From Escherichia coli (lineage in GTDB: Bacteria > Pseudomonadota > Gammaproteobacteria > Enterobacterales > Enterobacteriaceae), in assembly GCF_003334335.1 (NCBI RefSeq), contig NZ_QOWQ01000005.1: 64,000 nucleotides of DNA. One strand, given 5' to 3'. The notes under the pieces are model-generated. The model worked only from the letters and a program-made list of their open reading frames with translations, had not been told where the DNA came from and did no database searches. Of this stretch, positions 13,591 to 20,849 are shown one piece after another. The translations under genes were made by a program, and so were the position numbers. Numbering within the stretch: position 1 is the first letter of the stretch; every line of letters starts with the position of its first letter.

Positions 13591-14583
13591 TTACAGCAGA
13601 GAAGGGACGCTCTCGCGAACAGCAGCTGGCCATACTCCACACTGAACCTGGCCGATATGCGGCAGTTGCAGCAGCAGCATAGTCAAACGAGACTGGCCGA
13701 TACCGCCGCCGATGGTCTGCGGCATTTCACCGCGCAGCAGCGCCTGATGCCACTCCAGCTCCAGGCGATCTTCGTCACCGGTCAGCGCCAGTTGATGCTT
13801 CAGCGTGTCGGCATCTACACGGATCCCCATGGAGGAAAGCTCAAACGCATCTTCCAGTACCGGGTTCCACACCAGAATATCGCCGTTCAGACCCGCATGG
13901 CCCAGCTCTGACGGGGTGCTCCAGTCATCATAATCCGGTGCGCGCACGTCGTGGCGATGACCATCGCTCAGCTTGCCGCCAATCCCGACAAGGAATACCG
14001 CGCCAAGATCTTTCGCTATCGCCCGCTCACGCCCTTTGGCATCAAGATCCGGATAACGAGACAGTAACTCCTGGCTGTGTACGAAGTGGATCTGATCCGG
14101 CAGGAACGGTGCCAGGCCAAACTCTTCGCTAACCGCAGCTTCGGTTGCTTTAATTCCCGCCCAGATCGCCTCTACCGTGCTTTTCAGAGTCGAGAATTGA
14201 CGCTCACCGTCGCCCATTACGCGTTCCCAGTCCCACTGGTCAACATAGACCGAGTGCAACGGAGAAAGACGGTCTTCATCGGGGCGAAGGGCTTTCATGT
14301 GCGTGTACAGCCCTTCGCCCGCGCTGAAGTCGTGTTGCCCTAAGGTCTGACGTTTCCACTTCGCCAGTGAATGAACCACTTCGAACTGGGCATCAGGCAG
14401 AGCTTTCACTTTTACCTGCACCGCTTTTTCACAGCCCGACAAGTTATCCTGCGTGCCATCCCCCACACGGCTAAGAATCGGCGCCTGGACTTCGATCAGC
14501 CCCAGACGTTCTTCCAGTTGACGAGAAAAGTGAGATTTCACGAAGCTAATTTGACGTTGTTTGGCAATGTAAGCGGTTTTCAT
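13591..14583 (-). CDS. asnA: aspartate-ammonia ligase (asparagine synthetase A)
   Basis: ORF track 13591..14583, 330 aa, N-terminus [38 protein letters not shown]. Confidence 0.96.
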
Positions 14584-14734
14584 TTTTTATACTCCTGCGT
14601 CCTGTTGCTTATGATTAAGCAACAAAAACCGACACACATGCAATAATCATTCAATAAAAAGCCTAACTCACTTTTGATTCATTAAAAAAGAAGGCTAAAA
14701 TAGAATGAATCATCAATCCGCATAAGAAAATCCT

Positions 14735-15193
14735 ATGGAAAATTATCTGATCGACAATCTGGACCGTGGCATCCTGGAAGCATTAATGGGCAATGCGCGC
14801 ACCGCTTACGCCGAACTGGCGAAACAATTTGGCGTCAGTCCGGGGACGATTCACGTTCGAGTAGAGAAAATGAAGCAGGCGGGGATCATTACCGGGGCGC
14901 GTATTGATGTCAGCCCGAAGCAGCTCGGTTATGACGTAGGCTGCTTTATCGGCATTATATTAAAGAGCGCCAAAGACTACCCTTCCGCGCTGGCAAAGCT
15001 GGAAAGCCTTGATGAAGTCACTGAAGCCTATTACACAACCGGCCACTACAGCATCTTTATAAAAGTGATGTGCCGTTCGATCGACGCTCTCCAGCATGTA
15101 CTTATCAACAAGATCCAAACAATTGATGAAATTCAGTCCACCGAGACATTGATCGTCCTGCAAAACCCGATCATGCGTACCATCAAGCCCTGA
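14735..15193 (+). CDS. asnC: Lrp/AsnC-family transcriptional regulator AsnC
   Basis: ORF track 14735..15193, 152 aa; divergent from asnA. Confidence 0.96.
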   Translation: MENYLIDNLDRGILEALMGNARTAYAELAKQFGVSPGTIHVRVEKMKQAGIITGARIDVSPKQLGYDVGCFIGIILKSAKDYPSALAKLESLDEVTEAYYTTGHYSIFIKVMCRSIDALQHVLINKIQTIDEIQSTETLIVLQNPIMRTIKP

Positions 15194-15215
15194 TCGGCTT
15201 TTTTAATCCCATACT

Positions 15216-15224
15216 TTTCCACAG
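15216..15224 (+). promoter_or_regulatory. DnaA-box-like 9-mer (TTTTCCACA) in the mioC promoter region
   Basis: 9-mer with one mismatch to TTATCCACA, located between asnC and mioC; mioC transcription is known to be DnaA-regulated. Confidence 0.55.
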
Positions 15225-15282
15225 GTAGATCCCAACGCGTTCACAGCGTACAATACGCCACTCTTAATAAAGGTGGCGGTTT

Positions 15283-15726
15283 ATGGCAGATATCACTCTT
15301 ATCAGCGGCAGCACCCTCGGCGGTGCCGAATATGTAGCAGAACACCTGGCTGAAAAGCTGGAAGAGGCGGGTTTTACCACCGAAACGCTGCACGGTCCGC
15401 TGTTAGAAGATTTACCTGCCTCAGGGATCTGGCTGGTTATCAGCTCCACCCACGGTGCCGGAGATATTCCGGACAACCTTTCTCCTTTCTATGAAGCATT
15501 GCAGGAACAGAAGCCCGATCTTTCTGCAGTCCGCTTTGGCGCAATCGGTATTGGCAGTCGTGAATATGACACCTTTTGTGGGGCTATCGATAAACTCGAG
15601 GCAGAACTCAAAAATTCCGGTGCAAAACAGACAGGCGAAACACTGAAGATCAACATTCTTGATCACGACATTCCGGAAGATCCGGCAGAAGAATGGCTGG
15701 GATCGTGGGTTAATTTACTCAAATAA
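15283..15726 (+). CDS. mioC: FMN-binding flavodoxin-like protein MioC
   Basis: ORF track 15283..15726, 147 aa, N-terminus MADITLISGSTLGGAEYVAEHLAEKL. Confidence 0.96.
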   Translation: MADITLISGSTLGGAEYVAEHLAEKLEEAGFTTETLHGPLLEDLPASGIWLVISSTHGAGDIPDNLSPFYEALQEQKPDLSAVRFGAIGIGSREYDTFCGAIDKLEAELKNSGAKQTGETLKINILDHDIPEDPAEEWLGSWVNLLK

Positions 15727-15748
15727 GTATACAGATCGTGCGATCTAC

Positions 15749-15757
15749 TGTGGATAA
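15749..15757 (-). promoter_or_regulatory. DnaA box R4 (TTATCCACA)
   Basis: Exact consensus 9-mer on the minus strand at the mioC-proximal edge of oriC. Confidence 0.9.
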
Positions 15758-15787
15758 CTCTGTCAGGAAGCTTGGATCAACCGGTAG

Positions 15788-15796
15788 TTATCCAAA
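15788..15796 (+). promoter_or_regulatory. DnaA box R3 (TTATCCAAA)
   Basis: 9-mer read directly; position is consistent with R3. Confidence 0.8.
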
Positions 15797-15822
15797 GAAC
15801 AACTGTTGTTCAGTTTTTGAGT

Positions 15823-15831
15823 TGTGTATAA
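15823..15831 (-). promoter_or_regulatory. DnaA box R2 (TTATACACA)
   Basis: Plus strand reads tgtgtataa, the reverse complement of TTATACACA. Confidence 0.85.
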
Positions 15832-15873
15832 CCCCTCATTCTGATCCCAGCTTATACGATCCAGGATCACCGA

Positions 15874-15882
15874 TCATTCACA
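15874..15882 (+). promoter_or_regulatory. DnaA box R5M (TCATTCACA)
   Basis: 9-mer read directly, between R2 and R1. Confidence 0.8.
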
Positions 15883-15928
15883 GTTAATGATCCTTTCCAG
15901 GTTGTTGATCTTAAAAGCCGGATCCTTG

Positions 15929-15937
15929 TTATCCACA
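15929..15937 (+). promoter_or_regulatory. DnaA box R1 (TTATCCACA)
   Basis: Exact consensus 9-mer adjacent to the 13-mer region. Confidence 0.9.
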
Positions 15938-15950
15938 GGGCAGTGCGATC

Positions 15951-15994
15951 CTAATAAGAGATCACAATAGAACAGATCTCTAAATAAATAGATC
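15951..15994. repeat. DNA unwinding element: three tandem GATC-anchored A/T-rich 13-mers (R, M, L)
   Basis: Plus strand reads ctaataagagatc (15951-15963), aatagaacagatc (15966-15978) and aaataaatagatc (15982-15994); these are reverse complements of GATCTCTTATTAG, GATCTGTTCTATT and GATCTATTTATTT. Confidence 0.92.
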
Positions 15995-16104
15995 TTCTTT
16001 TTAATACCCAGGATCCCAGGTCTTTCTCAAGCCGACAAAGTTGAGTAGAATCCACGGCCCGGGCTTCAATCCATTTTCATACCGCGTTATGCGAGGCAAT
16101 CACC

Positions 16105-17994
16105 ATGTTTTATCCGGATCCTTTTGACGTCATCATCATTGGCGGGGGTCATGCAGGCACCGAGGCCGCGATGGCCGCGGCGCGTATGGGTCAACAGACT
16201 CTGCTTTTGACACACAATATCGACACTCTGGGGCAGATGAGCTGCAACCCGGCGATCGGCGGTATTGGGAAGGGACATCTGGTAAAAGAAGTGGATGCAC
16301 TCGGCGGTCTGATGGCGAAAGCGATCGATCAGGCGGGTATCCAGTTTAGGATACTAAACGCAAGCAAAGGACCGGCGGTTCGCGCTACCCGAGCTCAGGC
16401 GGATCGTGTGCTCTACCGTCAGGCGGTACGTACGGCGCTGGAGAACCAACCGAACCTGATGATCTTCCAGCAGGCGGTTGAAGATCTTATTGTCGAAAAC
16501 GATCGCGTGGTCGGTGCTGTTACCCAAATGGGACTGAAGTTCCGTGCCAAAGCCGTCGTGCTCACCGTTGGGACGTTCCTCGACGGTAAAATTCATATCG
16601 GTCTGGATAATTACAGCGGTGGCCGTGCTGGTGATCCGCCGTCCATTCCGCTTTCTCGCCGTTTGCGTGAACTGCCGCTGCGCGTTGGTCGTCTGAAAAC
16701 CGGGACACCACCGCGTATTGATGCTCGAACCATCGACTTTAGCGTACTGGCGCAACAGCATGGCGATAACCCAATGCCGGTATTCTCGTTTATGGGCAAT
16801 GCGTCCCAGCATCCCCAGCAGGTGCCGTGTTATATCACTCATACCAACGAGAAAACCCATGATGTGATCCGCAGTAACCTCGATCGTAGCCCAATGTACG
16901 CAGGGGTGATCGAAGGTGTCGGCCCACGCTACTGCCCGTCGATCGAAGACAAAGTCATGCGCTTCGCCGACAGAAATCAGCATCAGATCTTCCTTGAACC
17001 GGAAGGACTGACCTCTAATGAAATTTATCCGAACGGTATCTCCACCAGCCTGCCGTTCGATGTGCAGATGCAAATCGTCCGCTCTATGCAGGGGATGGAA
17101 AACGCGAAGATCGTGCGTCCGGGTTATGCCATTGAGTATGACTTCTTCGATCCTCGCGACCTGAAACCGACGCTGGAGAGCAAGTTTATCCAGGGGCTGT
17201 TCTTTGCTGGTCAGATTAACGGCACTACCGGTTACGAAGAAGCCGCTGCGCAAGGTTTGCTGGCCGGTCTTAACGCTGCCCGTCTGTCTGCTGACAAAGA
17301 AGGTTGGGCTCCGGCACGTTCTCAGGCGTATCTCGGCGTACTAGTTGATGACCTGTGCACTTTAGGAACCAAAGAACCGTATCGTATGTTTACTTCGCGC
17401 GCAGAATATCGTCTGATGCTACGCGAAGATAATGCGGATCTGCGTTTGACTGAAATCGGTCGTGAACTGGGCCTGGTGGATGACGAACGTTGGGCGCGCT
17501 TTAACGAGAAACTTGAGAATATCGAGCGTGAGCGTCAGCGTCTGAAATCGACCTGGGTAACCCCGTCGGCGGAAGCTGCAGCCGAAGTGAATGCTCACCT
17601 GACTGCGCCGCTTTCCCGTGAAGCCAGTGGTGAAGATCTGCTGCGTCGTCCGGAAATGACTTATGAAAAATTAACCACGCTGACGCCGTTTGCCCCTGCG
17701 TTGACAGACGAACAGGCGGCGGAACAGGTTGAGATTCAGGTTAAATACGAAGGTTATATCGCGCGCCAGCAAGATGAGATCGAAAAGCAGCTGCGTAACG
17801 AGAACACCCTGCTACCCGCGACACTGGATTACCGCCAGGTATCCGGTCTTTCTAACGAAGTGATCGCCAAACTTAACGATCACAAACCAGCCTCTATCGG
17901 CCAAGCTTCGCGTATTTCTGGCGTCACGCCTGCGGCCATCTCCATTCTGCTGGTGTGGCTGAAAAAACAGGGTATGCTGCGTCGTAGCGCATAA
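16105..17994 (+). CDS. mnmG: tRNA uridine 5-carboxymethylaminomethyl modification enzyme MnmG (GidA)
   Basis: ORF track 16105..17994, 629 aa; N-terminal FAD-binding motif [13 protein letters not shown]. Confidence 0.97.
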
Positions 17995-20805: not shown

Positions 20806-20849
20806 TAAAGAGCAATATCAGATCGTTAACTAAATAGAGGCATTGTGCT

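Follow-up and report, generated by a model that had tools for sequence, protein, structure and literature searches.

The junction of asnC, mioC and the replication origin oriC in the Escherichia coli DNA analyzed here almost certainly works as described for K-12, with a DnaA-repressed mioC promoter and transcriptional read-through, across a terminator-free junction, into oriC. The positions of the elements, the phasing of the DnaA boxes and the way in which these overlap the promoter were observed directly in the present analysis, as were the lack of a terminator and the conservation of the arrangement across Enterobacterales. The whole arrangement is already known and well described, and its verification adds no new biology; the only additions to the known picture are the breadth of the conservation and the constraint on synonymous sites at the distal DnaA box R6, within asnC. 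Coordinates refer to the window, that is, the whole 64-kb stretch of DNA that was analyzed.

Identity of the locus and gene layout

The locus is the K-12-type E. coli oriC region, at the asnC-mioC-oriC junction. Positions 14580-16110 were matched in 5425 of the 5426 complete E. coli genomes, and the RefSeq labels along this segment are asnA, asnC, mioC and mnmG. Over its entire 64 kb, the window has 99.96% identity with MG1655 3877738-3941737, on the opposite strand, with a single mismatch, at 15859, over positions 14600-16110. The segment 15194-15760 shows zero differences from the MG1655 sequence used in the classical experiments, and the K-12 literature is therefore directly applicable to it. 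With respect to the protein-coding genes, the AsnC open reading frame (ORF) matches the NCBIfam AsnC equivalog NF008384 with 300.7 bits (cut-off 227), and the MioC ORF yields a full-length match above the cut-off to the MioC equivalog NF006531 (243.7 bits, cut-off 158, residues 1-146 of 147). The layout is as follows.

14735-15193, + strand: asnC coding sequence (AsnC regulator; ORF, NCBIfam, RefSeq), the same-strand upstream neighbour of mioC
15194-15282: asnC-mioC spacer, 89 nt
15283-15726, + strand: mioC coding sequence (FMN-binding flavodoxin-like protein, 147 aa; ORF, NCBIfam, RefSeq), directed at oriC
15749-16000: oriC proper, from R4 to the 13-mers (box scan, MG1655 identity except at 15859, 48-species alignment)
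15749-15757, - strand: DnaA box R4, TTATCCACA (box scan, perfect match)
15788-15796, + strand: DnaA box R3 (box scan)
15823-15831, - strand: DnaA box R2 (box scan)
15874-15882, + strand: TCATTCACA (R5M; box scan)
15929-15937, + strand: DnaA box R1 (box scan)
around 15975-16000: AT-rich 13-mers of oriC
16105-17994, + strand: mnmG (gidA; ORF, RefSeq), on the far side of oriC, with transcription leading away from it

The features that define an enterobacterial oriC are all present, namely R1-R4 in the known order and orientation, the 13-mers, and a location between mioC and gidA/mnmG. An earlier note on this DNA, made from the sequence alone, had mioC directed at oriC and ending about 20 bp before R4, and both points hold: the ORF at 15283-15726 (+) is identified as mioC by RefSeq as well as by NF006531, and its stop codon ends at 15726, leaving a gap of 22 nt before R4 begins at 15749. 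R4 is counted as the right end of the minimal oriC (PMC4585315). The 'origin_of_replication' feature in the MG1655 RefSeq record (3925744-3925975) corresponds to window positions 15763-15994 and excludes R4 (15749-15757).

The mismatch at 15859 (MG1655 3925879), between R2 and the TCATTCACA box, is an A instead of a G, by which TTATACGGT becomes TTATACGAT and one more GATC arises at 15858-15861; we take the 9-mer at this position to be the low-affinity DnaA site I1. Not one of 5424 complete E. coli genomes has this A, and G stands in the aligned column of 42 out of 48 Enterobacterales species. The A may stem from a private mutation or from an error in sequencing, or it may have been introduced; the idea of a lineage polymorphism with a bearing on the mioC arrangement was considered and rejected, the change being private and located outside 15194-15760. 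In all, the window differs from MG1655 by approximately 16 scattered single-base differences (for example at 1252, 3962, 4886, 11682, 12761, 20280, 20823, 30583, 31829, 34519, 43818, 45368 and 52871) and by a short divergent, indel-containing patch at 85-167, upstream of rrsC. Twelve of the differences are coding changes, evenly divided between synonymous and nonsynonymous (6 each). Among about 5400 genomes, the change at 20823 was found in 1 and that at 3962 in 0, and the changes at 3962, 15859 and 20823 each create a new GATC, three against about 0.3 expected by a rough estimate.

Transcription from mioC into oriC

Two features bear on the path of the mioC transcript beyond the gene.

15727-15748: gap between the mioC stop codon and R4, 22 nt, with the palindrome AGATCGTGCGATCT, two GATC sites and no T run
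15797-15818, + strand: A/T-rich hairpin GAACAAC-T-GTTGTTC followed by AGTTTTT (lenient scan), in oriC between R3 and R2

Neither a terminator scan nor a more lenient scan yielded an intrinsic terminator in 15727-16104, from the mioC stop codon to mnmG. The earlier note had likewise seen no terminator between the mioC stop codon and R4, and here the scans and the hairpin energies agree. A hidden terminator in the 22-nt gap was considered and rejected, given that the gap contains a GATC palindrome only (a 5-bp hairpin at 15733-15746, -4.2 kcal/mol) and no T run. Moreover, such a terminator-like site is present in the stop-to-R4 gap of none of the 48 species compared, and even a minimal one anywhere between mioC and the 13-mers is found in just 3 of the 48. 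Over 15690-15830 (141 nt), the RNA folds no better than shuffled sequences (z = -0.69), and an Rfam scan of 14500-16300 produced no match. With no terminator after mioC and R4 only 22 nt past the stop codon, RNA polymerase is thus expected to enter oriC.

How far transcription continues within the origin is a separate matter. Most mioC transcripts might stop in oriC, at the 15797-15818 hairpin, at bound DnaA or through the action of Rho, such that 'read-through' would be an overstatement; we regard this as the less probable reading, albeit the one among the alternatives that deserves the most weight. The hairpin is the only terminator-like feature on the mioC transcript path, a weak stem with a T run 71 nt beyond the mioC stop codon, and a review grants full crossing of oriC to 'some' transcripts only (PMC4621074). 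Against this, the hairpin is A/T-rich and, at -4.1 kcal/mol, falls below the criteria of the terminator scan, and neither its stem nor its T run is retained in distant species. Furthermore, transcripts ending at 15797-15818 would already have passed R4 and R3 and hence would lie inside oriC, so that read-through from mioC into the origin stands as the preferred reading. On the opposite strand, a promoter-like TCCACA-17-TATACT runs from 15754 to 15726, with its -35 element in R4, and points out of oriC, antisense into the end of mioC; this may be the old 'Pori-R' promoter.

DnaA boxes and the core promoter of mioC

The mioC promoter region comprises the following elements, together with the upstream asnC terminator and the distal box.

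15102-15110, + strand: distal DnaA box TTATCAACA, one misfit (misfit scan), in asnC codons 123-126
15185-15205, + strand: asnC intrinsic terminator, hairpin AAGCC-CTGATC-GGCTT (15185-15200) and then T6 (terminator scan), in overlap with the stop codon of asnC
15203-15211, + strand: low-affinity box TTAATCCCA with two misfits, 3 bp ahead of R5, the first half of the 'double box'
15215-15223, + strand: TTTTCCACA, the DnaA box of the mioC promoter (older name 'R5'), 0 misfits to TTWTNCACA
15226-15231, + strand: probable -35 element TAGATC (3/6 matches to TTGACA, 17-bp spacer), within the block TCCACAGGTAGATCCCA, with a GATC inside it at 15228-15231
15227-15235, + strand: box-like 9-mer TAGATCCCA (read from the sequence), overlapping the -35 element/promoter spacer
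15238-15246, + strand: box-like 9-mer GCGTTCACA (read from the sequence), overlapping the -35 element/promoter spacer
15249-15254, + strand: probable -10 element TACAAT, within the block CACAGCGTACAAT

The asnC-mioC spacer had been said to carry a DnaA-box-like 9-mer, and a scan of 15194-15282 for DnaA boxes had been proposed as a check; in the box scans made here, TTTTCCACA at 15215-15223 fits the stringent consensus TTWTNCACA, that is, TT(A/T)TNCACA, at every position and is more than box-like. The box lies inside the 89-nt spacer, and its 3' end is 2 nt upstream of the putative -35 element. The stringent consensus has 11 matches in the window compared to 5.49 expected by shuffling, and the chance expectation of a stringent match within one 89-nt spacer is approximately 0.008. 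This low value is suggestive, although it falls short of proof, and we therefore examined conservation, which is a stronger argument against chance occurrence of TTTTCCACA than the match counts (see below).

The four same-strand boxes start at 15203, 15215, 15227 and 15238, in steps of 12, 12 and 11 nt, each close to a turn of the helix, and the last two, TAGATCCCA and GCGTTCACA, cover the -35 element and the promoter spacer. The DnaA boxes accordingly adjoin or overlap the core promoter elements, within an invariant block, where the -35 and -10 hexamers are probable assignments drawn from conservation and the literature. A scan for consensus promoters missed that of mioC, owing to a -35 element that matches at only 3 of 6 positions. 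MraZ, for its part, recognises TGGGN repeats. In the region spanning the DnaA boxes, TCCCA, CCACA and TCCCA repeat at 12-nt spacing (15207-15235; TGGGA, TGTGG and TGGGA on the - strand), and MraZ binds a site that overlaps the mioC promoter DnaA box (PMC4446571).

Published work on K-12 bears directly on these boxes. A review designates 'mioC (R5) box TTTTCCACA' by this name, cites gel shift and titration for DnaA binding at R5 in the identical K-12 sequence, and describes how, upon swapping of R5 for other consensus variants, both the titration of DnaA and the degree to which the mioC promoter is repressed change with affinity (PMC5835720). Five DnaA boxes within the region of the mioC promoter have been experimentally verified (PMC5835720); of these, TTTTCCACA alone fits the stringent consensus, and R5 and R6 are high-affinity sites, with R7, R8 and A of lower affinity (PMC4585315). 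Moreover, DnaA ChIP-seq yields a peak upstream of mioC with the site tTTAATCCCAtacTTTTCCACAg (PMC11317965), which is window 15202-15224, and DnaA binding to the mioC double box is cooperative and is lost upon a 4-bp insertion between the halves (PMC11317965).

As for the distal box, TTATCAACA is separated from the TTTTCCACA box by 104 bp and fits the published 'R6'. The same 104-bp spacing was reportedly given by Hansen and coworkers in 2007. The exact TTATCAACA 9-mer is present in 45 of the 48 species. In the 45 species for which asnC is full-length, third-position conservation of at least 0.95 is attained in just 13% of the degenerate asnC codons, and codons 122-127, which span R6, form the only run of three or more codons at this level. 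This conservation of synonymous sites points to selection acting on the DNA, therefore, and not on protein coding alone. The asnC-mioC stretch is not in one piece in approximately 354 of 5425 E. coli genomes; in NZ_AP022049.1, an IS91-family element of about 1.7 kb (locus L002, 4317-6000) is inserted at ...ACCAT/CAAG..., window ~15183-15186, where it alters the AsnC C-terminus and parts asnC and R6 from the terminator, R5 and the mioC promoter.

Conservation across Enterobacterales

One genome per species was scanned with the oriC 13-mer pattern, which gave 56 loci; 47 of these, in which the 3' end of asnC, a complete mioC gene and the origin follow one another in the same order, were kept for comparison. 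MioC identity in these 47 other species lies between 97% and 61%, with Budvicia, Pragia and Limnobaculum at the low end. Over this entire range, a + strand box with at most one misfit occupies the aligned position in 47/47 species and is perfect in 46, and the distance from the box to the mioC ATG is 67-73 nt in all species except one, with 101 nt. The perfect boxes comprise 45 located 67-73 nt from the ATG and the one at 101 nt, where there is an insertion after the promoter; in the 47th species, the aligned position holds the one-misfit ATATCCACA. More distant genera keep the box, with the stronger TTATCCACA in place of TTTTCCACA.

Conservation extends to the neighbouring elements. Little or no variation is seen in the blocks TCCACAGGTAGATCCCA and CACAGCGTACAAT, the latter being invariant in 47 of the 48 species; furthermore, in the alignment of all 48, TAGATCCCA is nearly invariant, the CACA of GCGTTCACA is invariant, and the AT.CCC core of the TTAATCCCA box is kept. 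In the same alignment, the 5' part of the spacer and the 30 nt before the mioC ATG vary freely, and the box block of the mioC promoter appears as a clear phylogenetic footprint. On the origin side, a perfect box is found 16-25 nt after the mioC stop codon (R4) in 44 of the 47 other species, and oriC aligns over all 48.

The asnC terminator behaves differently from the boxes that follow it. Its hairpin has a predicted energy of -5.5 kcal/mol (-10.6 in the extended form), and in Enterobacter/Leclercia-type loci its T run is replaced (TCGGGCAAATTCATTCCC) and the downstream DnaA box block is unaltered. Judging from these sequences, the asnC terminator of such loci may be weaker or absent, in which case a DnaA roadblock would become the main barrier.

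These observations bear on the alternative that the cluster serves mainly as a roadblock to the asnC transcript or as a store that titrates DnaA, with mioC repression and read-through as side effects. The cluster (15203-15246) begins right after the asnC terminator (15185-15205), and a complex of DnaA with the boxes near that terminator has been reported to block RNA polymerase; R6 is far from the promoter, yet its synonymous sites are conserved, and chromosomal initiation is unaffected without mioC transcription. However, both of these roles are compatible with repression, which is itself documented directly, and the boxes overlap the -35 element and the promoter spacer, as is the case for a repressor site. 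Moreover, the persistence of the unchanged box block where the Enterobacter-type T run is lost indicates that the cluster is not tied to the asnC terminator. We consider it unlikely, then, that roadblock or titration is the main function of the cluster, and repression of the mioC promoter remains the preferred reading. The notion that TTTTCCACA is a chance 9-mer with no role, in front of an ordinary mioC promoter, is extremely improbable: although the pattern is short (11 copies in the window, 5.5 expected), any genome will hold some copies without a function, and only 13/32 perfect TTATCCACA sites genome-wide are bound by DnaA (PMC11317965), this reading is refuted by the conservation of a same-strand box with no more than one misfit, found at the aligned position within an invariant block in 47/47 other species, by the occurrence of the stronger TTATCCACA instead of loss in distant taxa, and by the published binding data, that is, a ChIP-seq peak and mutational results for the exact sequence (PMC11317965, PMC5835720).

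Mechanism and comparison with known systems

DnaA binding, repression, cell-cycle timing and read-through are taken here from experiments published for K-12, in which the sequence is identical; these experiments also bear out the view in the earlier note that read-through into oriC and its DnaA-dependent shut-off are known features. DnaA-ATP represses the mioC promoter before initiation (PMC4585315), and in dnaC2 cells held before initiation mioC transcription is fully off and returns within minutes after initiation (PMC5835720). The transcription reads into oriC, with some transcripts passing right through (PMC4621074, PMC6606810).

On this basis, a sigma-70 promoter would drive mioC toward oriC. 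DnaA would bind TTTTCCACA and then spread cooperatively over the three weaker, phased boxes on the same strand, and the weaker boxes over the -35 element and the promoter spacer would, as their positions suggest, lead to occlusion of the promoter. The distal R6 in asnC probably assists this complex. Active DnaA, high just before initiation, would turn mioC transcription off, and the drop in DnaA activity after initiation would allow it to resume, some of the transcripts then terminating within oriC and others crossing it. As a second role, the DnaA complex just past the asnC terminator is reported to block read-through from asnC. The sequence holds nothing that speaks against this scheme.

The closest counterpart is the K-12 mioC promoter itself (R5, R6, R7, R8, A), with the same 9-mer, double box, gene order and distances and no difference from the window within 15194-15760. 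The dnaA promoter (dnaAp1/p2) resembles that of mioC in the combination of a consensus box with weaker close boxes, in repression by DnaA-ATP and in the presence of GATC sites in the promoter, and a review draws an explicit comparison of the two (PMC5835720). Unlike in mioC, however, the box of dnaA is TTATCCACA, placed between two promoters. Furthermore, sequestration after replication applies to the dnaA promoter but not to that of mioC, and the repression of dnaA is only partial, whereas the shut-off of mioC can be complete (PMC5835720). The DnaA-inactivating site datA is similar to the mioC-oriC junction in that transcription of a neighbour, the glyV-X-Y tRNA operon, crosses a cluster of DnaA boxes that controls replication; there, the terminator is leaky and bound DnaA is a partial roadblock. 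The two differ in that datA has a recognisable terminator/attenuator and read-through displaces IHF, whereas the mioC-oriC junction has no terminator and no replication phenotype has been found for it in the chromosome.

Indeed, deletion of the chromosomal mioC and gidA promoters leaves growth, the initiation rate and synchrony unchanged (PMC4621074), and in mioC mutants cell division is affected only mildly. It is doubtful how much read-through contributes functionally at the chromosomal origin. Given that the array is conserved even though loss of mioC transcription has no replication phenotype, another role may be under selection; it is conceivable, though we hold this only tentatively and would not expect it on balance, that the near-invariant box array, maintained from Escherichia to Budviciaceae down to the synonymous sites, was selected for a role other than the control of oriC through transcription. 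Two possibilities of this kind have been floated in the literature: a DnaA store next to the origin that times rebinding after initiation, and a switch that, via MioC, signals to cell division that initiation has taken place.

The locus provides a clean annotation anchor for the window, fixing the position and orientation of oriC along with asnC, mioC and mnmG. Beyond annotation, the box block, R6 and the terminator-free junction are conserved across Enterobacterales far more tightly than the absence of a chromosomal phenotype suggests, and this tight conservation keeps alive the old question of the purpose of mioC transcription and of its control by DnaA.
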